In this document: in pieces, positions 1 to 44,872 of the stretch | Position numbering within the stretch: the first letter of the stretch is position 1 | Layout: the number at the start of each line of letters is the position of its first letter | DNA from: Cenococcum geophilum | Lineage: Eukaryota | Assembly (NCBI GenBank): GCA_050273025.1 | Contig: CP158635.1 | Coordinates: forward strand, 4,030,001-4,094,000 | Direction: 5' to 3' | Length of the DNA stretch: 64,000 nucleotides | The notes under the pieces: generated by a model | The model's database searches: none | Told to the model about the DNA's origin: nothing | The model's input: only the letters and a program-made list of their open reading frames with translations | Made by a program: the position numbers and the translations under genes

Positions 1-3000
1 AGGCCCTTATTATTTTATTAACTAATACCTAGAGCTCTAAGAACTAGTTAGCTGGGGGTTCTTATATATAAACGAGAACAACCAAATCTATACTAAAATA
101 CGTTAGCGCCTAGGAAATCCACTCCCATATTTACCAAGCAGCTATTAAATTCAGTTCCTTAAAGACTAGCTAAGGTAGAATGCGAATATTAATCCCAATG
201 CGACGGCGACAGGTATCTAACTAAATACGTCCTTAGTAGAGCTTATAGAAAGCAATAGCGCTAAAAGTAAAAAAGAGCTCGGCGAGTCCTAGGAAGATAT
301 ATACTAAGTAGAGTCGGTATACGTTAATCTAATAGGAGCAGCAACCCAGTCGCAGCCTATAATACGGTCATACGATCTTAGAAAGCCAAGAGGAGACATT
401 AAGGTGATAAAACTATTTCTAAAACTAACTGGTTTGTAACCGGCAATAGTTTAAAATATACAACTAGGAGGATATGTCTAAATCGCACCACAACTACAGC
501 GGCAGGCCCCCTATTCACTAGTAAACAATAAGGAGACTAATAAAATAGACTATACTAAATAGCTAAGAAGAGAAGTAGAGTAAGGAATAGAAGCGACTAT
601 AACCGCTAAAGTACCGCAACTAAAGCCAGTTAGGATAATAGACATATTAAAAGGGAATGTCCTAAGCCCAACCGTAATAGCGAACAAGATCTTATTAAAA
701 ACTATTAAAGTTACTATTAGTAACTGCCTTGTGTATATACCTAAAGTTATAAGGTTATTCTTTAAGCCGCTCCTACTACCTTTTATAAAACCTTACCAAC
801 AAAAGCAAGAGGGCGTTAAGGCATCTATATTGTTGGCATACCTAACGTTTTATGCTAATTAAGCTAGCCTAATAACTATAGAGGTAGACCAAATTAAACG
901 GGAAGCAGGATTCACCTGGTTTTAATAATAATGTCTAAAGGTGGAAGCACAGATAGGAGACAAAAGGGTTAAGTGTTTAATTAACTCTAGAGCGGAGCTT
1001 AACCTTATTAAGGAAAGTGTAGCTCTATAATATAGCTTGCTGATATTAAGTCTGCCCCTATAGTTATAGGGCGTATATCTAATATTTACAAATAGGACTT
1101 AGTTTAAGTTTATTGGATTAGTATATATAGCCGCTATAGTTATAGGGGACGTCTTAATATCCACGACTTTTATTACTATGGGAGAAATGTTATATAAGGT
1201 AATACTTAGTAAGCCGTAGTTAGTAAGGGCTAGGCTAGCAACGCAGTAAACCGCAATAGGCTAGGTATCTTATATTATTTAATTAGAAGATAGCGGAGTT
1301 AAAATAAGGTTCTTAACATCCTATAAGGACGCAATATTCCTTAGACCAGATAAAGGAATTAGTATAGGCAGTAGTTTAGGAAACGTGTAACTAGTATAAC
1401 CGCTAGGATCGTATCTAGGGTTACTTATAACCCAGTATATTAGAATAAGGAGGACGCCGAGGACGGAGAGAAAGGAAATAAGGTGCGGCTTTAATAAGGA
1501 CGTTTACTATTCTAAATATCTACTAAACAGGGCAATCGACAGGAAGAAGAGCACAACGCTAGATAGAGAAATCTTAACAGCGAAACGTTAAAGGAAGTCC
1601 TAAAGAAGCACTTAGGAGGAAGGCAGAAGCCAGTATTTAAGGCGAAGGCTAGATCCCTTATATATCGAATGTCAAAGACGACGGATCTATTTATAATATA
1701 AATAGAAGGCTATAGGAGCAAGGCCTAATAGAAAGCTATAAGTATAGCAACTATATATAAACGAAAGGCAGAGAAGGTCCGCCTGGTTAATTCGTCAGCA
1801 CTAGACAGAACGGTTATAGGAGGAATAATAAAGTGGCGAGAAGTGGCCTTACGTTGGCAAAAGGCGTCCATTTAAGAGTTACCCCTTAGTCTATATAATC
1901 ATTTCCTTAAGCCGCAGTATACTAAGCTGGCCTATAGTACACGGCTAAAGCCAGAATAATTAGAGCGCGTAATTATAGGGGACCTCCAGCTAAGAGAATA
2001 AGAAATCTTAGAGGCTATATTATTTAACTAAGAAGAGGCTCTAGTATGGGAGTTCTTTAAGATAGGTCGTGTTAGCAGAGACGTAACTCTACTATTAAAG
2101 ATTAAGACTGTACTGTATAAAGCATAGCAAGTGCCGAACTTCCCTATACTAAGAGCCCTATAAAGGGAAGTAATAAATATGTTATAAGAACAACTGGCTT
2201 AAGGGACTCTAGAATATTGCGAAAGCCTATATAAAAATCTATGGTTTCTTATAAGCAAAAAGGAACACAAGAAGTACCAGCTAATTAATGTGGCGATAAA
2301 TATCAACTAAGTGACTATTAGGGACGCAAATCTACCGCTATATACTAATGAGTTTTCTAAAGAGTTTATAGGGTGTAAAGTTATATCTCTAGTGAACTTC
2401 TTCTCTAGATATAACTAATTGGAGCTAGATATAGAAAGCAGGAACCTAATAGCCTTTATAACACCTCTAGGACTTCTATAATAAATAACAGTACCTATAA
2501 AAGGAATAAATTCGGTAGCCTAGTTTATAAGGACAATTACTAAGATTCTAGAGCAACATATCCCACACTATGCCTTACCGTTTCTGGATAATATTATAGT
2601 AAAAGGACTATAGATAATGTATAATAGAGAAGAGAGCCTTTTAGGCATGCGCAGATATATTCTAGAACACATTATATAGCTAGACGGAGTACTTATAGAT
2701 TTAGAACAAGCTAGGTATATAATCTTAGGCGTAAAGTCTTATTTCTATAAGGACGAGATTATAGTAGTTAGTTACCGCTGTAATAGAAAGGGGCGATATT
2801 TAGAAGAATTAAAAGTCGTAAAGATTATTTACTAAAGAGATTATAAAGACGTTATATCTGCCTAAGCCTTTATAGGAGTTGTCGTATATTACCAAATATA
2901 GGTAGAAGACTTCGCAATAAAGGTAGAGCCAATCTTCTAACTACTATAAGTAAACGTTCCGTTTGTATAGGGTATAGAGTAGATAACTGCTATAAAGACT

Positions 3001-5420
3001 CTAAAGTATACAATTACTACTATACCCGCGTTAGTTCAACTGGATTATAGTAAGGGGGCTAGGCTAATTATTCTCGCCGTTAACGGATATAAGAATGGGT
3101 GGGGATACAGTCTTATACAACTGGACGTATAAGGTTATCGCCACCTATATTAATATAAGAGCGGTATCTAGTCTTAAGCGGAATAGAAGTATAATTTAGG
3201 AAAGCTTAAATATTAGGCATTGCTATATACATTAAAGAAGTATTAAGTATACCTATACGGCGTCCGCTTTACGGTTAAAACGGATATAAATACCTTAGTT
3301 ACGCAACTAAATTATACTGCCACCGATTTACTAGGAGCCTTAATAATATAATAGCTAGCATAGATTTAGTTATAGGACTTTAATATTAGGCATATTCTAA
3401 GGAAGAAAAATAGCCTAGCTAATAGACTATTATAACGACCACTAGATAGCGAATAACCTAATAAGCTAACTAAAGATATTAAAGAGTTTATTAACTGCGA
3501 ACTAAGTGCTTTAGAATATACGGCTAGCCCAGTTAAAATAGAGGTAAATCTGCTACTAGAAGACTTATATTCTGGGGAGTTTTAAAAGATTATAAAATGG
3601 CTAGTAACCTTACGACGTCTAGAAGAAATAAATACTAAAGAATTTAAAAAGTTTAAACGACATATACTGAAATTCCTAGTGCGCAATTAACAGCTCTTCC
3701 GCTAATAGTCAAAAAATATACTAATACAAAGGGTAGTTAATAATAAGGACGCTTAGTAAAAGATTATTAAAAGCCTTTATAATCAAAGCGGATATCGCGG
3801 ACAAGAAGGAATATATTAGAGGATTTTAAATTAATATTAGTAGCTAGGGCTATAGAATCAGATATTGTGGTATATTAAGTTATATCTATAATGCTAGGAG
3901 CAACAGCTAGAATAGGAAGAAGAAGCGATATACTTTACGTAGGAGTCTACCTTATAGCAATAAGTAGTAGTAAACATTACGTTTATGCCTCTAAGCCGTC
4001 TTGGATTCCAGTACCTGGCTATTACTTAAGAATATATATCTAAATAGGTAGAAGCTTGGGCCCTTTAAAATAAGGATATAAAAAGTATAGCGAAGTTCCT
4101 TTATAAAGATGTCATTTGCCGATAGGGAGTATTTAAACAGCTCTCTGTAGATAGTAGAGAAGAGAATACTAACGTTACCGCTACGCTTGTAGAGCTCTAT
4201 AATATTAAAAGGGTTATAGCTTCCGCTTATTATACTTAGGCGTAAGGCTTTATAGAGTAAGGCTATAAACCTATAATAGACGCTTTAGCGAAGATAGATA
4301 GCTTATGGCTAGACAATCTTTATACCGTTTTATAGGCAGATAGGATAACTATTAAGCGGCTTATGGAAATAACACCGGTAAGAGTTATATACGGATATAA
4401 GTATATCCTTCCTATTAAACTCTATATACCTATTTAGTAGACGCTGCCTTAGTAAATAGTCCGGACCACTATAGAGCTACTAGTACTTTGTGTAAAGCAG
4501 TTTAACTAAAGAGACGTAGATATAAAAGAGGCTATCGCGCGTATAAGACAACTAAGGGTAGTAAATAAGGAGTACTTTAATAACACCTACCGCATTTACT
4601 AAGACGGATTTAAGGTTAGAGATATAGTTATACTTTATAATATGTAGCTTAAGTAAGACTATTCTAGTAGTTGTAAGTTAGATCTAAAATGGCTAGGCCC
4701 GTTCCGCGTATATAAGAGTTACCCTTATAAAGGATGGTACTTAATTAAGGATCTTAACGGCACGCCATTTTGTAATTAAACTCTAGGGAATAGATTAAAG
4801 AAGTTCTATTAACAATAAATGTCTAAGGTCCGCTAAAAAGACTAGCTTAACTAGTTAGGCGGAACTATGCTATAAGAAATAACAGCAGAGCTAGAACCTA
4901 AGGAGGATACTATATAAAATCCACTAGTATCACAACGCCGTATAGTTTAAGAAGTGCGCGTTTTAGAAAGATCGTTTAACAGAACTAAGTATAAAACATT
5001 TAACTAGGGGACAGTTAAGTTCTAAGGTAGGAAAGGGGATATAGATAACAGCCGTATAATCCATCTATTTATTTACCGTATTTCCTAAAGCTCTTTCTAT
5101 TACGCTTTCTTATTTACTTTTTAGTTAGGAATTTAATGCGTAGTAATAGTAAGGTAAGGATAGAAGAATATTTGCGTATAACCATCTAGTATTATTTACT
5201 GTAAAGATATTAGTTCCGCTTACCGCCTTTACTAAACTAATAGCAATTTTCCATCCCGGGGATAGAAAATCATAATTGGTCCATTTAACGATTAGAGCCG
5301 GCAGAACTTTATACCGCCACTTAGATTTAGTAGACTATTTAGATTAGAAAGCCCTATTTAAAACTTTACCTTTTTACCCTTAATAAACCTTAAACACAGC
5401 CGTAATTAGTTAAAGTTACA
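1..5420 (+). mobile_element. RIP-degenerated Gypsy/Ty3 LTR retrotransposon A (5' part outside window): gag-protease, RT, RNase H, integrase, PPT, 3' LTR
   Basis: De-RIPed translation gives protease LI(D)S(G)AELNLI at 977-1009, RT FLD(D)II at 2581, RNase H ILAV(D)G near 3070 and integrase at ~3780-4450. Purine tract AAGGTAGGAAAGGGGA lies immediately before the LTR. Many TAA/TAG stops derive from C->T/G->A changes. Confidence 0.92.
5040..5420 (+). repeat. 3' LTR of Gypsy element A
   Basis: Starts TA (RIPed TG) directly after the polypurine tract and ends ...GTTACA at 5420. Confidence 0.7.
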
Positions 5421-5452
5421 AATTAAATAGAATTAACAACAGTATATTTATA

Positions 5453-8074
5453 ATATCTTTATCTAGTAGACCTCTGGTACTATATAAAGGAGCTAAGTAA
5501 TAGATTAGTGACGTCCTTGCAGAAGTCAGAGGCTTCGTAGTTAATTAGTGTTAGGTAGTACTCCTCCAAATCTATAACGAGATTCTGCTCTCTTAAGAAA
5601 ACTACGCAGATACTACTAGTATGGTAGTTAATTTTATTAACTAGGATAACGGGCTATAAGCGTCTCTAGGAAGGGACGCGTTCTTATTAATCTTTAAAAA
5701 CATCTCTAACGTTAGTAAGATGGCAAAAGATTAAAGAAATTAGTGTAATAAAGCTAGAGAAACCATCTAAAAGTCCTAGGGATAAGGTGTTCTTAACGGT
5801 CCACTTAAATATGTGGTTTCCTATTACTTCCTTTCTACCGCCTAAAAGCTTACCGTCTACCCACTTTATAAAGTAATGGCATAAGTTAATGAGGCCCTAA
5901 TTAACAGGCTCAAATATCTAGGACGCGGCATTAAGAACACCACTTAACTACAGCCGACCGATTTCGCGCTCGCGCTAAAGATGCTAGGAAGGGCAGTATT
6001 AGACTAGGTAGTAAATAAGCATGGCTTAGAAAGACACTTAACTAACTTCCTTGTTTTAAATAAGGACCTGCCGCTAAAAAGTAGGAGACTAACTACTATG
6101 GGGCTAAAGGTTATTAATATTGGAATTAGATAAATAGGAGAGAGCTTAGCTCTTATACTGCAAATATATTTACGATATGCTTCTAATATAATAAATCCCT
6201 TAGCCTTTCAGCCATCAACACCTGTTTAAAAAGGAGGCATTAGTATTATACTAAGTCCGTTCTAATAAGGGTCACCTATATTAGTTAACTTACCTTTATT
6301 ATCTATAAACGAGAGTATTCTCGCAGCTAGAACGCCTATTGGCTTACCCTTGCGGCTATTAGTATCTTTATTAAAAAGGAATCTAAGAAGAGGGCTAACG
6401 ATTGCTTACCTAGAAGTAGGAGGGCTAGGAGTAGAATCAATATTTAATAAAAACGTTATTAAGCCGGGAGATAATAAGGAGTATATTAAGGAGGCCGTAG
6501 ATGCTATAGCGATACTCCGCGCAAAACGAGGGTATAACTGTAAGGATAATGTGCCTACTTATCTTAAGGCGTCCCTAAACTAAACTACTAAAATTAAACC
6601 AACTAAGGTTATAAAGCTCTTGCGTAGTTAGTATAGGGCAGCTAGTTCTAATCTAAAGATATATAAGGTCTGCTAAATGCATATATAAGCTATAGGAGAA
6701 CGTATGGGTTTAGCGATAAAGGATCTAAACTACGCCGTACTGTGTTATAGACTCCATTTAATATATCACGCTTATAACTACCTCGGCACTATAAAGACCG
6801 ACCCTACTATATACTCTTAGTTTAGAAAGGCTTATAGACCTTTAGTTTTATCTAATTCCTTAGGACTATATAAGTTCATTTATAACTTAGCGCCAAGGTT
6901 TTTATATAATAGAGAGGCTTTGCTTAATTAGATAATGTTACTAAAAGACTAAGAAGTATAGTAGCGAGAAGGATCTGTAATTTTAAACGTGTTTAGATAG
7001 TAGTGGGATTCTAGTATCTTAGTAATAATTAATAAGGAAATGCGTATATACCGCTACTATTAGCGTCTAATTAATAGGCGGCTAAATTACGGCTGGTTAA
7101 GAATAATGGTCTATAGTTTCTACTAATAGCTAATAAGACAAGACCCTTAGTATTATTGTCTCTATTGCGCCCTTAGACCTAACAGCTAATGGCGACTTAT
7201 CTCCTACCCTTATTATATAAAATTCGCAGTTAAAGGAGACTCTACAGCTTTCCGCCATATTAATGTTAATATTCCCTCGCTCCTTAAAAGTAGACGCGGT
7301 GCTAACATAATCTAAAGGAGCGTTTCTCTAGATAATAAGACTAAGGATAACTGTACGATTATTCTACCTAGTATGCATTACCACCTAGAATTATAGTATG
7401 AGGATCTTAAGGCGCGAGGATCGATTAAGGGCGATGGATTTGTTTATAAGATCTCTAACTAAGACTAGACTATTAAAGATGTAGAAAAGTATGCGACCGA
7501 CTAGGTAGCTTAGCTATATGAGAAAGGAGATATGTGTATAACTATGCCTTACCTTCCTTATAAAGTAAAAGGACCTTTAACTAGAACCTAGCGAACAATA
7601 CTACTATAGTTTATTAGTATTTAGGATGATTATAATAACCTTAAGGTTACTAAAGGAGGTACTTAGGTAGAGTTGGCAGATGCGTACTAAGACTTAAAAG
7701 CGCCGCCCCATACGCCGTCTAGATATACCAATCTCTATAGTATAATTCCATATTGCTTCCCTATAGCAGTTAAGCTTATAGCTGCCAGCGCTCTATTTAA
7801 CGCCCTTCTCGGTAAACGACAATAGGATTCTTTAGCGGTAGTTTAAGATTGTAACCTTCTTCTTAATAGCAACGGGAACGAAGTTAGGAAATGGATGCAT
7901 TCCTACCGTCTTAGGGCCGTTAAGAATTATAAAGATGCGTTTAAGCTAATATATACGACTAAGATGGAACGCTTTAATAGCCGCTCTTACTTCTACTGCA
8001 TCGATAATAGAATCAATCCTTTAGCTATTACGGTAGATCTAAGTAGAGTGCCCCTGGTTGTTATAGAAGGATAA
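5453..8074 (+). pseudogene. RIP-inactivated ~874-codon ORF: N-terminal helical region, Cys/His motif, C-terminal PhyH-like 2OG-Fe(II) dioxygenase domain
   Basis: One reading frame is kept at 5522, 6350, 7205 and 8072. De-RIPed text reads ...NYGWLR..QQLMRQDP.YY.LYCALRPD..WRLISYPYY..FRHI(D)VNIP...IQGSVSLD(DE)..DNCTIILP(G)MH...(PC)EKGD....P(H)LP(HGA)KGP...(R)RT. HxD at 7256-7264, distal His at 7559, Arg at 7589-7594. Confidence 0.75.
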
Positions 8075-8536
8075 AGTTATATAAAGTTGCCTAAAGAATT
8101 ATGGGATAGAACTAAGTAAATAGAAGGGTGCGAAAGAGCTATATTATCTAAGAGCCGCCAGTCTGAAGTCTCTCTTGCTGCTTAGCTAAGTAGACGAGAA
8201 CGGTCTTATTTAACCAGAACGGAGTCTCCTCGTTCGCCATCTTAGGTTTGTAGTAAGAGTAAAAAGCGCATATAATTACCTGCCGCGCCTTCATTTCGAA
8301 GATAAGAAGTTTTAGAGTTTCGGAAGTTATTAAGGGATAACGACTTAGGTAGGGGAGGTATATAGTAGTGTGATTTGGCCTCTAGATTTAACATCTAGAT
8401 TAAGCATAGCTTTAGGAGAGCCTAGGCCTTACATAAGTTATATAGATTAGTCTAAAGCCCTTAAAGTCTTTAACAACTCGGACAGGCACAATAGACATAC
8501 AATATACTCTTTTCTTTCTTTTTTACTGCCTGTTCT

Positions 8537-8597
8537 ACTAACTAATTATAACCAACCAACCAACTAACCAACTGACTGACAGACAGATAGACAGCAC
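8537..8597. repeat. Compound tetranucleotide microsatellite (ACCA/ACTG/ACAG)
   Basis: accaaccaaccaactaaccaactgactgacagacagatagacag read directly. Confidence 0.85.
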
Positions 8598-8943
8598 TGT
8601 CACTTTCCTATCTTAGAGAGGTCGTACCCTCCCATAATAGTAACTAAGGTTATATAATATAATCTATATAATTTATAGAATCTATATAATCCGTAATAGA
8701 GTAAATAGAGCACATATATATTATATATAAGAAAGATTTTATAGGAGTACGGTTATATATTTAAGGACCCTTAGTCCCTACCTAGATAGTTCCTTCCTTA
8801 TAATAATTCTTAGAATATAATTAGAGTTAATTTATTAGGCAACTACTCTACTAGTTATTATTACGTTATTAACTTTAATTTACTTTACCTATATACCTAG
8901 CCTAATAACGAGCCTATCGTAGTACTTACTAGGTTTTGTTACA
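8598..8943. mobile_element. Orphan LTR (E) without matching TSD
   Basis: Termini TGTCAC...GTTACA. The right end cuts the minus-strand integrase of element B mid-frame. Flanks AGCAC and CCTAC differ. Confidence 0.6.
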
Positions 8944-11900
8944 CCTACTCTAAAATACTTATCCTAGTGCTTATGGTTATACTAAAGTCTCTATTACTCT
9001 TAGGCATCTTATAGGCTCTACTTTATATACTTTTATTACTCCTCCTATTCCTAAAGGTATTCTTATACTCTTTAGTAGATATCCTTAAACTTCCTAGTAG
9101 GATTCTATAACTAATTATGCGGCCTTAGCCAGTAATTATTAGGTATACTATTAAACCTAAATAGTCGGACGCTATAGGCAATCTAGATTAGTGCATACTT
9201 ATACGATATATATTACTTTAAATTATAAGCGTACTCCGCGTACGGAAGTAGCTTATACTAGTTGTCTTACTAATAGTTTAAATATATCCGTAGGTAAGAC
9301 TCCAGTTCCTAGTTCTGGCGTTCTATTTACCTATTTATCTTTAGGTAAAAAGCCATACTATAACGGTGGTCTATCTTTAAATGGAAGTATAGATCTGACT
9401 AGTACTAACTTATAAAAACACTGCCCCTATTAGTAATAATAGAGTGCGGCTAATCTACTTTAAGAAAGCATTTCTTCTTAATTAGGTTGGCGAGCTCTTA
9501 TATATTAATCGTCTTATTAACAGAAAGGTATTAGACGTACTTTAAAAACCTATTAATAAGTATAAGGACCGAATTATATATTCATCCTTAGCTATCTTTA
9601 AATAGCGGGAGATCCGTAATAAAGTTTATAGTGTAATATCGTTATAGCTTACTAGCGGGGTGAACTAATTTAAGTAGACCCTATGGCTTATGCCTATAGA
9701 TCTTATATACTTAACACTTCTCGCAATAGCTAATATACTCCTTTACTTCCTAATTAAGCCTTAGCCAATATTATTTATATTAAAGTAATTCTACTATTTT
9801 TGCTTAACTATAGTGGCCGCCTAAAGAATTATCGTAATTCTTTATAAGAATCTTCTGTTGTAGATTTACTTCTTATAGCACCTAAACCTTACTATCTTTA
9901 TATAGTAGGCCCATCGGGTTTAGTTCCTAATAGTAGCGCCTAGCAGCTTCCTTTCTATTACGTTTCCGGTCTACTTTTATATTAAGAATAGTATAGAAAG
10001 CGTCCCTTTATTATACCTTACGGATAAGGTCTATTAACCTGTTAAATAGTTCCTAGGTAAAAGCTGTTTTATTCTATACTACTCCAAATATAAAACTAGA
10101 TAGTACTATAGATCTTATAACTCTTTAATATGCGTATATTAGGAAGGCCGCTATAAGGTTAAAGTCCTTTAGTTATTATAGGGCTCCGAGTTCCAATTGC
10201 TCTATAGCTTCGCTATTAGTTTAAGGGGATAGCTTAACAATTAGGGATAGTATATTACCAGGTTCCGAGAATATATTAGGGACGTCCTATTTAAGTATAT
10301 TTAGACCCTTATTAGTAACGGACCGGGTACTAGCTAGAACGTTAGTAAAAACTAATAGGGCTTATACTGCCTAAAACTCGGTATATAGAGCTGTGGGTAC
10401 TTAAGCATTCTATACCTAGAGCTTATTCTATAATATAGGGAGTAAGATATCTATTATCTATTTTCCTTCTCCCGTTTTAAAGCCTTTAGTATAGTCTAGC
10501 CGTTATAACAGTCTATTAGTAAGGTTGTTTTCCCTTAGCTTATATTTAATCTTAAAATTAAACTATATAAGCTCCTCTGCCTATCTAGCTTATTAAAGTA
10601 TAAGCTCCTTTATAGTTAAAAAGTAGCGTAAATTATAATAATCTAAGAGTATATAAGTGGTATAGCTCGCGTGCTTAAGGTAGTGTTGCTACTATTTAAA
10701 GCAGTTAACTATAGCTAGCAGTTCCTTATTATGGGTATAATACCTAACTTTAGGTCCCTAGGATTTTCTATTATAAAATATTACTAGTCTCTAATAGAGC
10801 TAAGTAGCGTCCGGATACCTATTAGGTTGCAGTAAGATACTAATAAGGGCAAAATTTAATATATTAGTAATTATTATTAATGGCTAATTTAGGTTAAAAT
10901 GCCGTAGTAATAAAGCTTCTATAAACTTTATATAAAGTTTCTAAAAGGCCTCCTAAACCTTTCTAGGCTATAACCATAGCTTATACTATTTAGTTAGTCC
11001 CTTTTTAGTTTTCTTCCTTACTACCTTTAAGCTTTTTACTCCTTAGGTTAAGTCTTAGGAAGCTTCTATAATATAATTAAATAGGTATTAGGTAATATCT
11101 AAGTAGTTATAAATAAAACGCCTATAGAAATTGGTAAAGCCTAGAAATACTTAAATATCCTAGTAGCTCTCTAACTCTAGCTACTCCTAGATTATCTACA
11201 CTTATACTAGGTCTATAATTATACTTATAGGCGTTATAATATAACCTAAAAACTTAACCTACTTAGTATTAAAGATATACTTTAATACCTTAGCATAGAG
11301 GCCCTAATTATCCAAACATTCCAGCACTTCGCGGATATATTACTCGTATTAATCCTCGTCTTTTAAGTAAATTAAGATATTATCTAAATAGATAATATAT
11401 ATGCGGTTAACTAGCCCCCCTAAGGCTCTGTAAATATATAATTAGAATATTATAGGCGTATTAGCTAGCCTAAAAGGCATCACTAAATACTTAAAGTGGC
11501 CGTATTAGGTCTTAAAAGCGGTCTTTTACTTATCCCCTTCTTTAATACGGAGCCTATAATAGGCGTCTTATAGATTTAACTTCGTAAAGATCTTCGCCCT
11601 AAATAGTTAATCCAGCATTTTACTAACCAGTAGTAGTAGGTAACGGTTCTTAATTGTAATCTTATTAAGGCCGCGATAGTTTATATATAGCCTTATAGTT
11701 CTATCTAGTTTTAGGATAAAAAAAATTAGCGCGCCTAACGGCGACTTACTAGGCTAGATCTATCCCTTTTCTAGTAAGCCATTAAAGTACTCCCGTAGGA
11801 TCTTAAGCTCTTTATATAAAAGGTTATAAATAGGAAGGTTTGGCGGTTACTTACCTTCTTTTAAATTAATTATATAATTATACTCCAAGTTCTATAGTAG

Positions 11901-14854
11901 GACTTTAGCTCTCCTACCCAAAAATACCCTTAGTAAGTCCCTTAGGCCTACTAGAATATTTAATAAATTAGGGTTGCGTTTATCCTCTGTGTTATTATTA
12001 GGTAAGTCCTAGAGCTCCCTTAAGATACTTACGGGCAGCGTCGTGCGCTATAATAGTTGCTTATACATAGTTGCCACTATATATTAAACCGTTTTATACA
12101 GTAGCCAATAGAGGGTAGGGAACTCCTTAACGCAGCGTTTAAGGTGCTGTAGTATACTCTCCGTATATTACTTAAGCTAGAGTAACTTATAGCGGTTAAA
12201 GTATCTTATAAGATCCTTAAGATCGCCGCCTCCCTATAATATCTCCGCGACCTATTTAGCAGTTCCCTATAGGGTCTCCGTTATAGAGGGGTTATTACCT
12301 ATACTAAGCTCTATACCTATCTTACTATTAAATAGGGGTTAGATTTAATACTCCTTTAGGTATAAAGCGTACACTATTTTACCTAGGGCTATATTCTCTA
12401 GAATATCCTTTAGGCTTATTAGTAATATATACCCTTTTATATCTTTATCGTTTCACTATTTAAAGGCTCCTGTCTTAAAGCGTATCTTAAAATCTACTTC
12501 TATAAGCTAAGGGTATCTAAAAATAAGGTTATAATCTATAAAGTTAGCCGCCTAAAAGGGTTGCGGGCTAACTACCTTAGTGCGGTTGTATATATTAGTC
12601 ATTAATACTGTAAGCTTATAAGCACTATATAGCTTAATCTAATACTTATCTAGAAAGCCTATAATAGATTTCTGCCACCTTTATAATAGGATAAGTTTAT
12701 ACTCTTTTACTAAATTATATTATATAAGATTAATTTCGGCGCCGCTATTATATAGTACTTAGAACTGTTATACCTCACCTATAAAGAGTATTATTTCCAG
12801 CTTAACAGCAATATAGAGAGTCTCTCCTTTTATATCCTGCCCTAGTTATAGCTAGGAAAAGTCCGTAACTAGGGCTTTTTTTTTTTTAGATCGTTAGTGC
12901 AGTTATTACCCTACTTATTTTTCTAATAAGATCTACCTCCGGAGTTTTTTCTTGACTTCTTAAAGTATTTCTATAAAGGTGCTAGATAGGTATCGGGTTA
13001 GCCCTAAAAGTCTTTCCCATTATTTAAGGTTCCTAACTTTAACCCTTCTAAAGTTCTCTTTAAGAACGGCTTTTTTAAAAATTAGGTCTGCCCTATATTA
13101 TTACTAAAGTGCCTACGCTTTTAGTAACCCCTTAGCTTTCTACTAAAAGAGGTCTAGTTCCTTATTATATCTTTAGCGTTCAGAACTACTCGTTTAAAAT
13201 CCGTATATATAGTAATTCGTAATAGGGCTCCTACGCGCTTTATTTTATTATAAATTACTAGCTTAATTCTAGCCTAAATAAACCTAATCTTCTCCTTCTT
13301 ATAGATGCTACCGTCCTTATTTTTAAAGGGCTCTAGATCTATCTACTAAGTATAAGTTTTTATAAAGTTTATAAACTGGCGGAAGTTATAGCAGTCTAGC
13401 TATATCCTATTCCAGAATAGCTTTATATTATTATATTATATAATATACAGATCTTAAGTCTATTTCTTTAGAAAGGTTTATAGCTATAGCTATATAATAA
13501 TTTGCTCTTTATTAAACTAATTAAGTATAATCTAGTTTAGCGATTAGTCTTTAATCTTGCTAATAATCCAGTATATACGCTCTTTAGTATTATCTTATAT
13601 CATTAGTATTTTAAAGAAGTTATTTACCTTATAAACCCAATCGTCTAACTACTGGGCGTTAGGTCTATAGCGGAGTTCTAAACTATTAAAGGCCTTAGCT
13701 AGTCGGTCTATATCCTTTTTCTATTTATAGCGTAGATAACTCTTTAAGTCTTCTATACCTTTTTAGGTAGGTACTAAGTAGCTTCTAAAAAGCCCTTAGC
13801 CTTAACTAGGTTATAAAAGAATTTACTTAGCTTAGATTAGACCCTACTAAATTTAAATTTACCCTTAGAGGGTTCTAATATATTTATTAGTGGCTTTCTC
13901 CTACATAGCTTTTAAGAGCCTTATAATAGCTTCCTAATATCCGTCTTAAAGGAGATTAGTATAAGGCTCTTAACCTTCCGAACTTAGGCTTAGGGAGGCT
14001 CCTACTATAAAGGTAGTATTAGTATTAGTAGCTAGTATAGGCTTCCCAATAAGGCTTAGGTCTTAAGTTAGTAATTAACTTAAATTACCTAAAGGGGTAG
14101 GCCTACTTAGCTTATAAGCAGTTTATATACCACTACTATACCAATTATAGGCCGGTAGTCTTCTAGGAGGGTTCTAGTTAGTTCCCTAGTTAGATATATT
14201 AGTATATTCCTCTAGTATTTCTAACTTAGGGGAAGAACTTAAAGTCGCCTCTAGCGCTTAATCTTTTAATTAACCTAGGTGGGGCCGGAGAGGTTCTAGC
14301 TGCTTTTTAGCAGTATTATAATTATTATAGAGGGTGTTTATATTTTCCTTAGCGTTACTGGTAACTATAGGTATATAAGAGTCTTCGAGCTCCTAGAGCA
14401 TCTAGGTATTAGGGCTTATTTAGCCATCTTGCCTAAAGGGTTATATTGTCGCAATCTTTCGCTATTAGAGGGACCTTCCTATCTTTACGCGACGGCTTTC
14501 TATAAGGTATCCGTGGAGTTTCTATTTAGGTTATCGCGAGATTTTAAAGGAGAATAGTAGTTGTAAATAAAAGATATAAACAAATAATCTGGTTTTTAAA
14601 ACCGACTACTCTTTTAAAAAAGAGTAAGAAAGATTTAAATATAAGGGGATCTTATAGATAGGGGGCTATAAGGACACAATTGGAATAGAATAGATTAGTA
14701 AAAGAGATAAATCCTTAAGGAGGTAAGGCCTTTAGGATTATAGAGATTATATACTACAGGTATGTGCCTTTAGTACGTAACTAGCGACTATCTAAGGGGC
14801 GTCTAGGGGTTGTCCTAAGGGCAACCTAAGATGTCTACAATAATATCCCTTATA
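8944..14854 (-). mobile_element. RIP-degenerated Gypsy/Ty3 LTR retrotransposon B, 3'-truncated, with 5' LTR at 14640-14854
   Basis: Minus-strand motifs: protease (D)SGAEIN ~12731-12750, RT YLD(D)ILI ~11372-11392, RNase H T(D)ASDFA ~10850-10870, integrase (DGQT)ERQN(Q)ELESYLR ~9290-9335. A-run at the gag/pol junction 12876-12887. LTR has inverted ends T(G)TAAGGG...CCCTTA(C)A. Confidence 0.9.
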
Positions 14855-17856: not shown

Positions 17857-20288
17857 CCCGGCTAAGTGTAACTATAAAATATATAATAAGGAAATGCTAG
17901 CTATAATCTAATTATTATTCTAATAGCGCGTAAGGCTTAAAAGCATAAATTTCTAAATTAGGATATATATAGATTATAAAGCCCTAGAGTATTTTATAAT
18001 AATAAAGTAACTTACTAGTTAATGGGCTAAAATACTTTTCTAATTCTTTTTTACAATTACATATTATCCTAGTAGGTAGAACTTCTAGGCTAATACTCTA
18101 ACTTAGAGGGAATAGGACGTAGGTCCTTAAGATAAGCTAAAGTGTAACCAACTACCGGACCTTGCATATTACCCTGTTTCACCTGCGTCAGCACTACCCT
18201 TGCATGTCTCGGATATGGTTCAAATGAGTTATGGGCTTCGGAGTTCGGGGTCTACTTTCATGTATTTATACCACTTGATTTCCATAGATTTACAATCAAG
18301 TTGCTCGTTTAATTCCTACACACTGCAAAGCTTACATAAAGGCTTAGTACTAAATATAGGTACTCTACTATCCTAAATAGCTTAATCTATGGATTTTTAA
18401 GGAGCTATACTCTAAATAAAACAAGCTAGCGCCTATAAAAGAAGAGTCCTTAAACGAGCTAATAGGACTAATTAACTACATTCTAACTATAAACTATACG
18501 GCTAACTCCCTAAAGGCCCTTCGCGATTAAGCCATAAAAGGTAACCCTAATTTAGAAATAGAAGAAGGACTGCTGTTATACTAAGAACGGCTTATAGTTC
18601 CGGATATTAATAAGCTATAGATAGAGCTAATCTATAAAGCCCATTATTAAGTCTCTATAGTATACCCTAGTTAAGATAAGACTTACTAACTACTAATACC
18701 CCATTACTATTATTGGGGACTTTTATTAGATATAGAGCGATTTATTAGAAACTGCTACGCCTATAAACGCGTAGATACCCCTAGGGATTAAACTCCTAAG
18801 TAGTTATAACTACTATTAGTTCTAGTATATCCTTAGCAATATATTATAATAGACTTTAAGTCATTCCTAAAGGACGCCTATGGCTATAATATAGCCTTTA
18901 TAATAATTAACTAACTAAATAAGTAATTCTTCTCCCTCTTTTATTTTAAGACTATGACTATAAAGGATATAGCTTACCTTTATATTAACAATATCTACTA
19001 AATCTACGGCGCTTCTAAATTAATTATCTCTAACCATAGCCCCTAGTTTATATTAGATTTCTAAAACGAGTTCTACTATATTCTTAGGATTAAGATTAAA
19101 CTCTCTATAGTATTTTACCCTTAGACGGATAGCTAAACTAAAATTATAAACTAGTACCTTAACTAGCAGCTATAACCCTTTATAGACTACTACTAGGACA
19201 ACTAGTTGGAATTACTGCCTATAATAGACTACGCGCAGCTTACGCTCCCCTATAATAGTATAGGAATATTATTATTTAAACTGCTCTATGGATATATATC
19301 ACAAGCGTCCTTTAATTAGGATAGATTTACTAAACCCATTATAACTTATAAACGCCTTAATTATAAAGAAGCCTAGATATTTATAAAGAGAATATATAAA
19401 GCCTAAGAGACTACTTAAGCAATTATAAAGAAGGCGTAGAAGAAGAAGGAATCTAATATAAACTAATATTGCCGCAAGGCGGACTTCCAAGTAGGAGATA
19501 AGGTATAGGTATTAATAAAAAACTAGAAAACCTAGAGGCTAAGCTATAAGTTAGACTACTAAACGGCTAGCCTATATAAGATTCTTTAAAGGGGAGGATA
19601 CTCTTTTAGGGTTAAGCTACTAGAATTAATAAAAATCCACCCTATCTTTTCCCTAAACTAACTATAATAGGCTATAGACAACTTATTACCTGGGTAGTAT
19701 AACGACCCTCTACTACTAATTTAGATTGCGAAGGATAAGGAATAGAAAGTTAAAGAAATCCTAGCAGTTAAGAAGATTTATAATATATTAAAATACTATA
19801 TAAGCTAAGTAGGCTATAACGACGACCTAAGATAGTATCCTATATTTAATTTTAAGTACTCTTCTTATAAGCTGTAGGACTTCTACCTAGCCTACCTATA
19901 TCTCCCTAAACCACCACGCAAATTAGAAAACCGGATTAAACACTAGGAAGAAAGGGTAGATAACTATAATAATTTAGATAATAATAGGGAGCTTAGATAA
20001 CGCCTAAGGGCAGGCTTTTTTAGGAGGGGGGGGGGGGTAATGTAACGGTGCTAGGGCGCGTTAGCTATTAAATTCTGCTATACTTTTGCTAACTTCTGCT
20101 AACCAATTAGGATTTTCTATACCCGGCATAGAAAATCGCTATTGGCCCGCTTACTACTAGCGCCTTGGTGACTCCGTTGTATTTACGTTAACCCCTAAGG
20201 GCCTTCTTCTTTTTCTCTTTAGCTTAGTATCTTTGTATAGTAGCAATCTACAAGCTTTGTCTTAGAGGCATTTATACGAGCCTGTTAT
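17857..20288 (+). mobile_element. RIP-degenerated chromovirus-type Gypsy element C (RNase H C-half, integrase, chromodomain, PPT, 3' LTR 20041-20288)
   Basis: PA(E)CNY(E)IY(D)KEMLAI at 17857. HHCC integrase motif ~18630-18770. Chromodomain E(W)(E)V(E)EILAV..Y..(W)VGY at ~19740-19840. G-run PPT 20022-20037. LTR TGTAAC...TGTTA(C)A. Confidence 0.9.
18143..18336. mobile_element. Un-RIPed solo LTR (194 bp) with 5-bp TSD TAAAG
   Basis: Termini TGTAA...TTACA. TAAAG at 18138-18142 and 18337-18341. Retains many CA/TG dinucleotides. Confidence 0.92.
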
Positions 20289-29357: not shown

Positions 29358-31531
29358 TTATTCCATGTTGTGCCAGAGAGCCACATTTCGTAAACAGAGA
29401 GCATTCCATCGCCAGAACGCTGCCACAATTACGATATGAATGGCTAATAGGAGGAGCGATCCGCCAAGGCGAAAGTGGAGGCCACCGTAAGTTAACCCGG
29501 CAAAGGTGAAATCCAACGCCGCAAAACAAAGAAGCGGATATGCTACCCAAGGGTTTGCGGCGAGGGGATAACATGGGCTGGAAACAGATATCACTTTTAG
29601 GCAGAATAGAGATATCTTAGCAAGTCCGAACGTTATAGGATTTGCGGGGAAGTAGTGAAACCGTGATACTACTGTTGGGGGTGGAGGTAGCATTAAACGA
29701 GGTGCTTGTGGGGGTGGGTGATTCGATTTTGAATTGGACTCAATCTTGCGCGGACGGAGGACTACTGAAGAGTCTGGTGGTGTTGGTGCTCGCCCATTTT
29801 TTGTCGGAGTGGGAGGGTGAATAGGTGGACTGGGTGTACGAGAAGTATCCATAGAAGACGATTTTAGCATCGAAGAGCCTGGCCGCACATAGTTGGCGGC
29901 AGACTTTTTCCTTGAATGCTTACCGGGAGCAGGCGAAGGTGTATCGGCCCGGGATATTCGAGACCCAAGTTCCTCAAGACCAGATGGGCTCGCGAATCCA
30001 CCAATCTCATCGAACATGGATGGAGACTTAAATACCTGCAGAATCTCCTCCGTTCCGGGTCGCTCAGCAGGATCCAAGGAAAGTAAATGTTTTAGTGATT
30101 TGTATAGCTTGTCGGGAAGATCATCTCGGACACGCCGTTCATAATTAAACCCGGCCCAAGTAGATATTTCTTCTCGAAGGCGGTCCAAATCTTCATTATC
30201 TTCATCAATGCCATCTGCATTGCGATACGGCAATCTTCCAAAGCACATGAAATACACAATCATGCCCAGCGAGAATATGTCCGATTTTGTGGAGAAGTTG
30301 CCCAGCGGTCCACCTGGAGACTCTCGACGAAGCACCTCTGGGGCACAATAAGAGATGGTTCCCGTTGCTCCGGTGGATTTCCGAACAACATTAGCTACTT
30401 GGACTTCTCCAAAGTCGCTTACAAGCACCCGCATCTTCTGTCCTGTATCGTGTAGGAGGCAGTTGCTCGGCTTTAGGTCGCGATGTATATATCCATTCGC
30501 GTGAAGATGGTTGAGACCTGAGGTGATATCCTTGAAAAACGAAAGGATTTGCTCGAAATGCATTCGACGCGGCCCATTTAGTTCATGCGGTTCCTCAAGT
30601 TGACCCTTTGATCTCCGGCGTAAGCGCTCTTTCAGTTGCTGTGTAGTCATGGACGTCTTTGCCGAATCTAAAATGTAATCGTGGAGGTCCCCAGCATTGC
30701 AGTATTGCTGTAGAATGAACGCACACGGAACGCTAGGTCCGAAATTTGATATTTGATAATCTTCCAGCCAGACGTGTCGGTATGAAACAAGATTCTGGTG
30801 TGATAGATTTTGGAGCAGTTGGACCTCGATCAAAACTTTTTCTAGCCATTCATGGTCGTCACCCACAGGTACACGTTTGCAGGCGAACTGACCAAGCGGC
30901 ACACCGTCTAAAACATGTTTGACCAGTAGCACCACACCTTTCCCACCTCTTCCCAGCTCACGCTCCTCCACGAAGAAAGTTTTGAAGTAATTTGGGCTGA
31001 ATGCCCTTGCGGATATGCCTTGAGACTTAGGTGGGGGTGCTGGAGTGCTTCCAACAAACTCAGCCCCAGCAGGGGCATGAAGAGTATCACCAGAGCTCCG
31101 CAGAGGTATGTGTCCAATACTTTTGTGAGGTGATGGTGGACACGGAGGTTCCGATGATCCAGGCTGACTGCGACGAAGCATGCGGAAGTATCCCGGATTC
31201 ACAAACCCCGTCTCGTTATCCACAGCTGATCCATGCTCTTCTTCATCCGAATCCTGTGGATCTTCGTGAAGGGGTCGATGGCAATATGGGCAGTCGGCGA
31301 TTTCGACGTCGGTCGAGTGGGAGACATCTCGCAATGAAAGCTGTTTAGACCGTTGATCGAAGACAACGACCGCAGAACCATGACGCCTGTAAATGAGACA
31401 AAATTAGCCTAGTTCTGACGGCATAAGTGGTACTCGAGCAAAAAACATGTGAGAACTGACAGGACGACTTCTCGAGATTCGGCGGGGAGGTAAGGCACAA
31501 GTGACATGCTGCGTTGAGGTTCGTCGGCCAT
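29358..31531 (-). CDS. IKS1: IKS1-family Ser/Thr protein kinase (intron 31387-31460)
   Basis: Exon 1 MSLVPY..REVVLR, N-terminal CPYC, kinase motifs LGRGGKG, FACK, HRDLKPSN, DFG and APE, C-terminal hydrophobic segments. Confidence 0.88.
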
Positions 31532-33785: not shown

Positions 33786-34579
33786 GTTGACATTGAGTTG
33801 GTGAAGGAGGGAGAGTGGATTGCGAGGCCGAGACGCGGCATTAACGGCAAGTTCGAAGAGGATGCGTCCAGGATTATGGTGGGAGAAATCCGGCCCCGCA
33901 TTGTTGTAGGTTGAAAGGGGCATCTAATATCATCGGCTATCACAAGCGGCTGCGCTGATCATTTCCGAGGCCATGTGCTTTCAGAGAATGAGACGAAGCT
34001 ATCATCAGGACAGTCAAGCCATCGCATTAATTAGGATAGGGCGTTAGTAGGACATGTGGATAGACGCATGTCACCGTCATGTGCATGTCCACTTGAACCT
34101 TGATTTCGTCCTAGCATCGAAGCCATTGCGAGGCTGCGAGGCACTCCATCACGCTGTATCGTGACCAGCGACGGGACCAACCGACATGTGAATCTCTCGC
34201 TCGCAGGGGTGGCTCGAAAGTGAAGCCCGATGGTGCACTATGATGCATTTGCAGGGAGGGGGATAAAAGCCATCCAGTCAAACGATACGGCGCGAAATCC
34301 CCTGGTGCCCCGGATTCTGGAGCGACGGGAGCGCTTGCAGCTGACATGAGTCCAGGCGCCGCGGGTGCCCGTCACTCCAAGTCTCTCGCTCGCGTCGCGT
34401 CCAGCTCCCGCCAGGGCTTTGGCGTGGGACCGCGATTTCCACTTTGACCAGCCCTGTCAATTTCACCTCTACCCACGATCACAAAATCTCTCCAATGCCA
34501 TGATATTTGCCGCCTCTTTGTTTCAGTCTCTTTTCAACTTCCTTTCTTTCTTCTGTTCCATCTTCCATTCAGCATAGCC

Positions 34580-43037: not shown

Positions 43038-44872
43038 TCACTGAAGAAGCGGGTCCTGCAAGTTAAACCAGTCAACAATCATTCCCAGCGATACAAACAG
43101 AGACGCCCAACTCACCCGGAAGTGTTTCTGGAAATTCCCCCTCTTCTCGTTCCCGGCCTGGTACCTATTCCTCTCGCGCTGCTCCCGCCGCCGCTCGCGC
43201 TTCTCGACCACGCGGATCTCCGCCTTCTTCGCCTCGCTCACGCCCACCATGCCCAAGCCGCCATTCGCACGCGTGACGAGCTGGCGGCCCCTCCCGCCCA
43301 TATCCCCACCGGCGTGGGCATCCCTATCCAGCGACGACTCGCTGCCGGACGCGATGGCGCGCCGCTGCTGCTGCCGTAGCTCCATGCGCTCGGCGACGCC
43401 CGGGTAGTTGCGCAGGTTCTGGCGGTAGTAGCGGTTGAGGGAGCGGTGGCCGGCGGTGCGGCCGGAGGGGAGGTGCAGCTCGAACTCGTCGTGGTAGACG
43501 GCGACGGGGGTGGCGTGCGCGTGCGAGTGCCAGCCGTCGGCGCTGCGGTGCGGGCGCGGGTCGCCGTGCGAGTGGTGCCGCGAGCGCGCCAGCAGCGCGT
43601 ACCGGTGCGAGCGGTCGCCCAGCGGGATCGCGGTGATCTCGTCCGTCGGGACGTCCGAGAGCGTGCTGTCGGTTTCCCAGCCATCGTCGTCGGCGGCGGG
43701 GGCGGACGCGTCGCCGGAGATGGTGGTGGTGGTGGTTTGGCGGGCGGCGCCGAGCTTGATTCCGCCGGTTTCGTTGGTCGTCGAGTCGGTGCTGTTGGAG
43801 TCGTCTTCCCCCCCCCCGGCGTCGGAGTAGGTGCTGGTGAAGTCGTAGAATTGGCCGATTTCGATCAGCTCCTCTTCGCTTTCGAAGGCAATCATGCAGT
43901 GTCCGCGGTCGCGCATGTGGGTTTGGATGCCGGAGGTGGTGTGGACCACTTTGCCGCAATAGAGGCACTCGTGCAAGTCGTTGATTTTGTTCCACAAGTA
44001 GGTGATGAGACCTTCAGCGTCGACGAGATAATCCTTCTCTGGGACGAACATGCCGTGGAAGCGGCCCATGTGCTGAACATTTAGCGGGAAGGTTGGAGAA
44101 GCAAAGTTGCAGAAGAGGCAGTTTAACATGGGGTTAGCGCTATACTTGGAGGTAGAGGCCGTCGAGGCAGTGTCGTCGTCTTCCATGGTGGTCGTCGCTG
44201 TAGTGGTAGTTGATAACGGGTGTTCTGGTCGGTCCTCCGCTGACGAGTGATGTGGTCTCGTGGGACGACGCGAAACGGGCTCCTTCTCGTCCAATGAGGT
44301 ATTTTTGATGTCGTTCACGACCTGCGAAAATTCGGCCTCTGCGTCGTCCACATCGACCACGTCTTTCGACTCCGACTCCACGACCGGCTCACCCATGGAG
44401 AATGCGGAGCTCAGCATGGAGGCTGTTTCATCATCGCGGATTGTTGACGATGCGGCCTTCTGTGCCCTCGTGACATTCGCCTTGTGCTTCTGGCTGTTAA
44501 GATGGTTGTTATAAGCGTTTTCGCTGTAGTACGTTTTCTGACACACGGTGCACGGTTTCTCGAACGATGCTCGTGCGGCAGTTGCGGCGGCCGATGCCTT
44601 GGTGGCCAACACCTTCTCTGCAAAGATCTCCGAAGACAGAGGAGGGAGAGAGGCTACTCGACGCTTGAGATTATATCGACTGAAAGGAAAGAGCGAGTGG
44701 TTAGTTTGATTTCACGGCATGAGACAATATCCCAGGTTACTTACTGCCAGTCTGATTGCATATGAGTCCTCTGCAGTTCACTTGACCTGAAGGCTACCTG
44801 GCAGGTATTGCAGGTAAAAGGGTGGGTGGACTGCGCGCTCTGCTGTTGCTGCTGCGCCGTTGTGTCGGCCAT
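43038..44872 (-). CDS. REI1: Cytoplasmic pre-60S maturation factor REI1 (C2H2 zinc fingers); introns ~44680-44744 and ~43057-43115
   Basis: FTCNTC..HMQSDWHRYNLKRRVASLPP, CTVCQKTY..HLNSQKH, CLFC, CLYC..HMRDRGHC, ELHLPSGRTAGHRSL and the C-terminus QKHFRDPLLQ. Confidence 0.93.

Follow-up and report, generated by a model that had tools for sequence, protein, structure and literature searches.

A PhyH-like oxygenase gene as the third open reading frame of a RIP-mutated Ty3/Gypsy retrotransposon in Cenococcum geophilum

The stretch of DNA analysed here (hereafter, the window) comprises 64,000 nucleotides of Cenococcum geophilum (assembly GCA_050273025.1, contig CP158635.1, positions 4,030,001 to 4,094,000 of the forward strand). 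Its positions 2-8636 are the right-hand 8.6 kb of one Ty3/Gypsy long terminal repeat (LTR) retrotransposon that has been mutated by repeat-induced point mutation (RIP), and positions 5453-8305 are the third open reading frame (ORF3) of that element. In intact relatives, ORF3 codes for a protein predicted to be an Fe(II)/2-oxoglutarate (2OG) oxygenase of the PhyH kind. The 5′ end of this copy precedes the start of the window, which contains the 3′ LTR alone. The features of the window and the domains of the ORF3 protein are collected in Table 1.

The frame from 5453 to 8074 (+), in which the original prediction saw a RIP-inactivated gene without indels, contains 50 stops, all of them TAA or TAG and none TGA (0/50), and the other five frames carry 69-118 stops. 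These two stop codons are what would be expected if C>T and G>A changes had acted on CAA, CAG and TGG. Stronger proof than the stop count is provided by comparison with an intact protein. The window frame, translated with X for every stop (P0001), was searched against 5.8 billion proteins and gave exactly one match, an intact relative of 950 amino acids (aa; P0002), with 577 of 873 residues identical, no gaps and E = 0. Across the whole 950-codon frame, 626 of the 950 residues (66%) are identical, again ungapped, and an alignment at the DNA level to L002, an intact copy of the element described below, runs over 2853 bases with no gaps and, thus, no indel. As the match to intact P0002 is ungapped, the frame must be a real dead gene, and the absence of indels is upheld. 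P0001 itself, being a RIP-mutated translation, gave neither a Pfam match nor a PDB sequence match.

The length of the gene, in contrast to the 874 codons originally proposed, is 950 codons. RIP created the stop at 8072-8074 from Q874 (residues are numbered as in P0002 throughout), and the frame runs on past it to its true end at 8303-8305, so that 54 internal TAA or TAG stops interrupt ORF3. In certain relatives, ORF3 has an earlier start, which corresponds to window 5340. The sole ORF of at least 60 aa within 5453-8305 is a piece of 77 aa (6350-6583), exactly the one fragment that had been reported as present in the ORF track, and the motif coordinates that had been read from the damaged sequence (7256, 7559 and 6533-6680) proved exact on the P0002 alignment. 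At the positions of the predicted active site, the window copy retains H602 (7256), but D604 (7262) has become N, the distal H703 (7559) has become Y and a TAG stop has replaced R713 (7589). In the CxC...CxxH motif (6533, 6539, 6671 and 6680), C361 has been changed to Y and the other three residues are retained. The window copy of ORF3 is therefore dead, as RIP removed three of the four catalytic residues and made the 54 stops.

The mutational signature is found throughout the first 24 kb of the window, where the GC content is 0.31-0.38, TA/AT is 1.48-1.82 and (CA+TG)/(AC+GT) is 0.28-0.64 (for positions 4001-8000, 1.66-1.77 and 0.43-0.50, respectively). In the gene-bearing region (24001-60000), the same two indices are 0.49-0.99 and 1.10-1.41. 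The composite RIP index of ORF3 is 1.16, versus -0.67 to -0.75 in intact copies. Compared with L002, to which the window copy is related but from which it does not descend, ORF3 shows 76.0% identity, and 530 of the 684 differences are C>T or G>A (269 of these changes at CpA/TpG and 151 at CpG). Two segments of pol are 77.0% and 77.5% identical to the same element, with C>T and G>A changes amounting to 445 of 575 and 482 of 562 differences (77-86%), and the spacer between ORF2 and ORF3 has an identity of 0.751. Stops are also of like density, 54 in the 950 codons of ORF3 as compared with those given for the ORF1 part and ORF2 in Table 1. Given that pol and ORF3 are alike in identity and in stop density, the whole element was mutated as one unit. 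The statement that the mutation density of the gene equals that of the neighbouring retroelement is thus correct (identity to L002 of 0.760 versus 0.770-0.775 for pol).

The architecture of the element was established from related copies. Metagenome contigs were scanned with P0002, and 13 loci were obtained. In two of them (L001 and L002) ORF3 is stop-free and the GC content is 0.50-0.51, whereas the other 11 carry 9-93 stops, an ORF3 GC content of 0.32-0.45 and positive RIP indices. As 11 of the 13 loci are RIP-mutated, the ORF3 gene must be multicopy and a target of RIP, and the proposal that the gene was multicopy and part of a repeat is well founded. Intact elements are approximately 10.6 kb long and are organised as LTR, ORF1, ORF2, ORF3 and LTR, with all ORFs in the same direction. 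Three intact ORFs are present in each of L001 and L002, namely, an ORF1 of 974-977 aa, an ORF2 of 1112-1122 aa and an ORF3 corresponding to P0002. Pfam recognises an aspartyl protease at the C-terminal end of intact ORF1 and, in ORF2 of both elements, RVT_1, RT_RNaseH, Integrase_H2C2 and rve, which is the Ty3/Gypsy order. The first 820 residues of ORF1 (L001 1756-4680; L002 582-3515) have no Pfam gag match, are unusually long and, with a ratio of nonsynonymous to synonymous substitution rates (dN/dS) of 0.17, evolve faster than pol and ORF3.

In the intact copies, the LTRs are 274-288 bp long and have TG...CA ends, and two independent contigs place the LTRs 10343-10365 bp apart. The LTRs of L002 (127-400 and 10470-10743; 274 bp) are 100% identical, the four nucleotides CTAC flank the element on both sides, and a purine tract precedes the 3′ LTR. 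Those of L001 (1289-1415 and 11654-11780) are 100% identical over the 127 bp present before the contig end. The two elements represent two subfamilies that are 87.5% identical.

The window copy fits this architecture along its whole length. Positions 2-8540 align in a single piece, with 76% identity (blastn), to L002 2115-10659 and to L001 3315-11778. When the L002 element was used as query, pol was found directly upstream of ORF3 in all four other loci that reach ORF2 (L001, L004, L011 and the window). On the other side of the gene, 7/7 copies that extend past ORF3 (the window, L002, L003, L004, L008, L011 and L012) have the same LTR and, in an alignment of their 3′ ends, similarity among them ends immediately after the CA end of this LTR. 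A tblastn comparison in which 165 family proteins served as queries for the window and every locus showed one ORF3 copy per sequence. These results do not agree with the original view of the gene as cargo of an undescribed element lying between foreign retroelements, since what was taken as the left flank is the same Ty3/Gypsy element and its own 3′ LTR follows the gene. Likewise, the tyrosine recombinase, KDZ, Helitron or MULE contexts that had been considered are not involved; the neighbours are Gypsy ORF1, pol and LTR. A nested insertion of another element was ruled out, as collinearity is unbroken.

A different Gypsy element follows in the window, in tail-to-tail orientation. It gives only short, weak blastn matches to the metagenome loci and has no room for an ORF3, because its integrase end sits a few hundred bases from position 8637. 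No tRNA gene was found in the window and, hence, none was available for comparison with a primer-binding site.

Table 1. Features of the window (nucleotide positions) and regions of the intact ORF3 protein (residues of P0002).
Feature	Position	Strand	Remarks
ORF1, 3′ part (gag-like region and aspartyl protease), RIP-mutated	5..1390	+	Collinear with L002 ORF1 (582-3515); 27 stops in 462 codons
ORF2, pol (reverse transcriptase, RNase H, integrase), RIP-inactivated	1612..4979	+	L002 3737-7105; 81 stops in 1122 codons
ORF2-ORF3 spacer	4980..5452	+	Mapped to L002
ORF3, RIP-killed oxygenase gene	5453..8305	+	Sense, between pol and 3′ LTR
Purine-rich tract, candidate polypurine tract	8347..8360	+	Eight-copy alignment and L002; putative function
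3′ LTR, 276 bp	8361..8636	+	L002 3′ LTR (10470-10743), also L001 5′ LTR; ancestral TG...CA partly altered by RIP
Second, different RIP-mutated Gypsy element, tail-to-tail	8703..14402	-	RVT_1, RT_RNaseH and Integrase_H2C2 in X-read frame
Protein kinase	29358-31403	-	
Rif1_N (Rif1)	34448-37660	+	
REI1-like zinc-finger protein	43038-44711	-	
AZUL and HECT ubiquitin ligase	45771-49776	+	
DUF7730	55943-57532	+	
ORF3 protein: helical N-domain	residues 15-210		AlphaFold2 model
ORF3 protein: disordered linker	residues 211-353		AlphaFold2 model
ORF3 protein: helical basic Cys/His module, isoelectric point (pI) 10.0	residues 354-487		Holds Cys-x-Cys...Cys-x-x-His
ORF3 protein: PhyH/DUF1479-like double-stranded beta-helix oxygenase domain, beta-rich	residues 488-865		AlphaFold2 model
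ORF3 protein: disordered basic R/S-rich tail, pI 10.9	residues 866-950		AlphaFold2 model

There are also signs that the family has been active in recent times. The flanks of L002 (1-126 and 10744-10869) are AT-rich and have the appearance of RIP-mutated DNA around an element that is not RIP-mutated (GC 0.51), an arrangement that suggests a recent insertion of L002 into an old repeat block, with no RIP cycle passed yet. Together with the identical LTRs, the presence of this unmutated element within mutated flanks points to recent activity. Additionally, contigs assembled from RNA libraries (metatranscriptome runs X2 and X3, from one study) cover ORF2, ORF3 and the LTR with 90-95% identity, and coverage is also provided by two runs of an organism given as a code, from two further studies, whose status as RNA is only a guess. 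One RNA-library contig of 7988 nt spans L001 3963-11727, which fits the presence of ORF3 on a full-length RNA. The ORF1 bins left uncovered by these contigs carry no meaning, and nothing about habitat follows from the small word shares (0.07-0.18) observed in 23 of 24 runs. In the spacer (L001 8345-8492), one contig each of runs X3 and X6 skips 146 bases; the ends of the skipped segment (GC..TC) are non-canonical for an intron, and the skip may be due to a processing event or, as preferred here, to another subfamily that differs in length.

The intact ORF3 protein was modelled with AlphaFold2 on P0002, using an alignment of 69 sequences (a single-sequence run, with a predicted local distance difference test score, pLDDT, of 35, was left unused). 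The model has a mean pLDDT of 78.7, with 569 residues at or above 90 and values above 90 over most of 80-200 and 360-860. According to this model, residues 488-826 form a double-stranded beta-helix of the PhyH clan with a full 2-His-1-carboxylate site (H602, D604 and H703), and the conserved R713 sits where the 2OG-binding arginine belongs. Foldseek gave 205 PDB matches at E <= 0.001 and, among the matches listed, all are 2OG oxygenases of the PhyH kind. With VIA-align (residues 488-794), the best neighbours are YbiU (4rgk, Z 21.2, 274 aligned residues, root mean square deviation 3.0; 7twe, Z 20.9; 2csg, Z 19.6) and Candida Gig2 (6akz, Z 19.6), followed, at Z 14-16, by GriE, EctD, proline hydroxylase H11, EvdO1, SnoN, PrhA, KanJ and FtmOx1. 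A PhyH-type Fe(II)/2OG site in the C-terminal half of the protein, which had been read from the RIP-mutated copy, is therefore borne out by the model of an intact protein, by both structural searches and by the conserved HxD...H...R pattern.

Conservation was evaluated in an alignment of 150 relatives, in which (counting non-gap rows) H602 is kept in 138 of 148, D604 in 146 of 149, H703 in 142 of 149 and R713 in 142 of 148 sequences. The intact ORF3 proteins are predicted to be soluble and, since the iron triad and the arginine are 93-98% conserved, very probably active Fe(II)/2OG oxygenases, as far as the model allows. The Cys/His motif is also kept in the same alignment (C361, 102/103; C363, 103/105; C407, 111/113; H410, 108/112), and the module that holds it may bind zinc. 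Four of the 150 relatives have Y at H703 and four have R at H602. As CAT to TAT is a RIP-type change, some of the public "proteins" with Y at H703 are probably gene calls on lightly RIP-mutated copies. No hydrophobic or membrane-type segment was found in ORF3 (the maximum Kyte-Doolittle mean over 19 residues is 1.14) and, with the enzyme fold, this rules out an env-like ORF3. In BFVD, the fold search turned up PhyH-like proteins of giant viruses and phages alone; none of the matches was retroviral.

At the level of sequence profiles, Pfam PhyH (PF05721) is detected at E <= 0.01 in 18 of 54 relatives and lies above the gathering cut-off of 22 bits in six of them (22.5-36.1 bits), with no other recurring domain. 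The PhyH-type domain is thus all that Pfam sees in the ORF3 family, in keeping with the earlier statement that the gene is neither gag, pol nor a transposase. Neither DUF1479/Gig2-like (PF07350) nor Tet_JBP gives a Pfam match for P0002 even at E <= 10, the AlkB-type family (2OG-FeII_Oxy_2) gives none at E <= 10 for P0002 or at E <= 0.01 for the 54 relatives, and no TET/JBP chain is found among the matches listed by Foldseek or VIA. The family is best called a divergent sister group within the PhyH clan. A PDB sequence search with P0002 and with the 69-sequence profile produced no credible match (Pvc2 at E = 1; designed helical repeats at E >= 0.058), NCBIfam gave no match for four family members, and nothing usable came from searching the Atlas with residues 10-215 (the N-domain). 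The whole-protein Atlas matches are PhyH clusters at 0.89, a value to be taken as a lead only.

The family is large. A HMMER search of 1.84 billion representatives found 1441 relatives at E <= 0.001 and 319 at E <= 1e-30. The conserved core corresponds to residues 350-860, and the N-terminal third is variable. Ten relatives were looked up, of which five carry an organism name (Candelina, Sclerotinia borealis, Coniocarpon, Peziza echinospora and Vezdaea); all five are from Pezizomycotina and are annotated as "hypothetical protein" on contigs of up to 768 kb. A search for fused forms above 1664 aa, a size class in which fusions of pol and ORF3 would fall, gave none, although this is weak evidence, and no relative appeared when viral contigs were scanned with the family alignment.

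Between L001 and L002, the members of two intact subfamilies, dN/dS is 0.173 for ORF1, 0.069 for ORF2 and 0.071 for ORF3 (the latter with a dS of 0.33), and within ORF3 it is low throughout except in the last 90 residues (0.26). ORF3 is under purifying selection as strong as that on pol, and none of the copies long enough to include it lacks it. It is therefore, in our opinion, likely that ORF3 is a catalytically active Fe(II)/2OG oxygenase encoded by the element and needed for its own spread, rather than a passenger. For the anatomy and the enzyme class together, and leaving the substrate aside, we consider the explanation given here very likely to be correct.

Other explanations for the presence of the gene have to be considered. 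For instance, ORF3 could have come with another kind of mobile element, non-retroviral and so far undescribed, that carried it as cargo and lies between retroelements unrelated to it, an idea that derives some support from the fact that the region is a nest, with a different Gypsy element tail-to-tail from 8703 and more repeats up to 24 kb. However, there is no break in collinearity with the intact Gypsy elements from window 2 to 8636, the LTR-to-LTR spacing given above agrees between two independent contigs, ORF3 has no terminal repeats of its own, and Pfam detects no recombinase or transposase in ORF3 or in the 54 relatives, so that we give this possibility almost no credence. A host PhyH-like gene could also have been transduced once into a Gypsy lineage and have been carried along with no gain to the element. 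The size of the family (1441 representatives at E <= 0.001), the DNA context known for one element family alone, and the annotation of the named relatives as ordinary hypothetical proteins on long contigs can be cited in its favour. By contrast, the dN/dS of ORF3 is the same as that of pol and below that of ORF1, its catalytic residues are conserved, and it is intact in both elements free of RIP when decay would be expected under error-prone reverse transcription; we therefore consider a passenger quite improbable. Alternatively, the protein could be element-borne but non-catalytic, with the beta-helix serving as a binding or scaffold module, for instance, for RNA or a capsid partner. PhyH-like chains of a trypanosomal RNA-editing complex are among the structural matches (8fni_14, Z 15.0), and the Cys/His module and the tail are both basic, but the iron triad and the arginine persist across the 150 relatives (93-98%), which is the pattern of an active enzyme, which makes this explanation improbable.

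A more serious alternative, which we nonetheless regard as doubtful, is that the element carries a small-molecule enzyme that hydroxylates a metabolite (an amino acid, a lipid-CoA or a sugar derivative), with a benefit to the host or its physiology indirectly favouring retention of the element. The PhyH clan is concerned chiefly with small-molecule chemistry. Additionally, the best structural neighbours with known substrates (GriE, EctD, proline hydroxylase H11, SnoN, PrhA, KanJ and FtmOx1) all act on small molecules, for which reason the fold alone favours a metabolite. However, metabolic PhyH enzymes do not typically come with 480 further residues at the N-terminus, a disordered linker, a Cys/His module and an R/S tail, and a benefit to the host leaves selection of the strength seen in pol within a selfish element unexplained.

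Several observations weigh against the interpretation of ORF3 as an active oxygenase that the element needs, or limit its extent. The linkage to a retrotransposon is shown for one element family, that is, the two subfamilies described and relatives of about 93% identity in RNA-library contigs, and among the 1441 distant representatives some may be ordinary host genes, one of them possibly captured by the element. P0002 itself scores 17.1 bits against Pfam PhyH (E 0.0068), below the gathering cut-off. No Pfam gag family was found in ORF1 (974-977 aa) at E <= 0.01, its role as Gag being assigned from its position. The RNA data consist of assembled contigs and show neither transcription, nor strand, nor a separate or subgenomic message for ORF3. 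Part of the 24% divergence between the window copy and L002 must be ordinary and not due to RIP, because L002 is only a relative and L001 and L002 themselves differ by 12.5%. Finally, the solved structures closest to the model belong to enzymes with small-molecule or unknown substrates, which counts against a nucleic acid or chromatin target.

With respect to the role of an enzyme that the element would make for its own benefit, we propose that its target, reached in trans, is probably a macromolecule that belongs either to the element or to host silencing (a nucleic acid, a chromatin protein or Gag), and not a metabolite, although we see the chances as roughly even. The slight lean towards a nuclear or particle macromolecule is due to the retroelement setting, the 480 extra N-terminal residues, the Cys/His module, the R/S tail and the pol-like selection. 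It is also due to two precedents, as far as they are described in the accessible parts of the respective papers, namely, AlkB on an orchid Gypsy element (PMC9289625) and TET/JBP on fungal DNA transposons (PMC12730594). A more specific activity, in which the oxygenase would undo a repressive methyl mark as a true anti-silencing demethylase or hydroxylase, is put forward tentatively and with more doubt than belief. In its fullest form, this proposal would make ORF3 a counter-silencing enzyme, a PhyH-clan oxygenase recruited to methylated DNA or RNA bases or to methyl-lysine marks of chromatin, which we think unlikely. If it were so, the Cys/His module and the basic tail could guide the enzyme to the chromatin or nucleic acid of the element, and Gypsy elements of Pezizomycotina could thereby escape repression linked to methylation or RIP.

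Accessory oxygenases have been described in other mobile elements. According to the portions of PMC9289625 available to us, Ty3/Gypsy elements of Phalaenopsis (~25 kb) have an extra ORF for an AlkB-type 2OG dioxygenase that is a demonstrated m6A RNA demethylase, which its authors read as a counter to host control of the element. Although those elements, like the one described here, are Ty3/Gypsy retrotransposons in which a supernumerary ORF codes for an Fe(II)/2OG dioxygenase, the present element differs in its ascomycete host, its length of 10.6 kb and the PhyH/DUF1479-like clan of its enzyme (with no AlkB match in Pfam), which is known here from sequence and a model. In fungi, DNA transposons (KDZ, Helitron and others), mostly of Basidiomycota, carry genes for TET/JBP dioxygenases, and a 2025 survey found no retrotransposon with TET/JBP, as stated in the sections of PMC12730594 that could be consulted. 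As those sections present it, the likeness lies in a fungal mobile element with a 2OG dioxygenase thought to aid it against methylation or RIP-like silencing; in the present case, instead, a Pezizomycotina LTR retrotransposon is the carrier, and its enzyme comes from another branch of the superfamily. Boty (BcGypsy1) of Botrytis cinerea has an additional gene, brtn, which is antisense and of unknown function (Zhao et al. 2011, in the excerpts cited by PMC7264820 and bioRxiv 10.1101/2021.04.13.439636). Going by those excerpts, both are Pezizomycotina Gypsy elements in which one more ORF follows pol and precedes the 3′ LTR, but ORF3 is in sense and codes for a recognisable oxygenase, the two being set apart by description and not by sequence.

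Among enzymes, the closest resemblance is to the DUF1479/Gig2-like group that includes YbiU (4rgk, 7twe, 2csg and 6akz), with Z of 19.6-21.2 over 274-281 residues, the HxD...H site and an arginine after the distal His in common. By contrast, sequence identity to YbiU and Gig2 is 12-14%, and ORF3 has twice the length, further domains and a retroelement as its carrier. The match gives no function, because the substrates of YbiU and Gig2 are themselves unknown. A review of LTR retrotransposons in fungi (PMC3248453) mentions, in its accessible part, only chromodomains and "complex transposons", and no PhyH-like or DUF1479-like gene was found described for a fungal LTR retrotransposon in the full-text literature outside Repbase and subscription journals.

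With regard to the remainder of the window, positions 24000-60000 hold ordinary fungal genes (Table 1). The REI1 homologue is closest to Dothideomycetes, the class to which it assigns the host, its best named match being from Mytilinidion resinicola (68%), and environmental proteins reach up to 95%. A second, short AT-rich block of RIP type lies at the far end of the gene-bearing region (60001-62000; GC 0.32, TA/AT 1.52). Additionally, a short repeat with 83-90% identity is common to window 18143-18364, L011 2745-2962 and L007 10494-10647; it lies outside the Gypsy element with ORF3 and presumably represents a further repeat family of this lineage of fungi.

In summary, an LTR retrotransposon with a sense accessory ORF for a 2OG dioxygenase is known from one published plant example, with another enzyme family, and in fungi the dioxygenases known to be borne by transposons are confined to TET/JBP on DNA transposons. 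What is new here is a Gypsy lineage of ascomycetes with a 2OG oxygenase of a third kind, whose conservation is as tight as that of the polymerase. For annotation, the element accounts for a recurrent "orphan" frame in RIP-mutated, AT-rich blocks. Accessory genes are rare in LTR retrotransposons, and each of them reveals what limits the element in its host. If the target of the enzyme turns out to be a small molecule or a protein, ORF3 would still define an uncharacterised enzyme family with a clear genetic test, the mobility of the element. If, on the other hand, a nucleic acid or chromatin target is true, it would represent a new counter-defence against fungal genome defence. Should it counter silencing, it would also be without precedent among fungal retrotransposons and would add a class of substrates to those of the clan.

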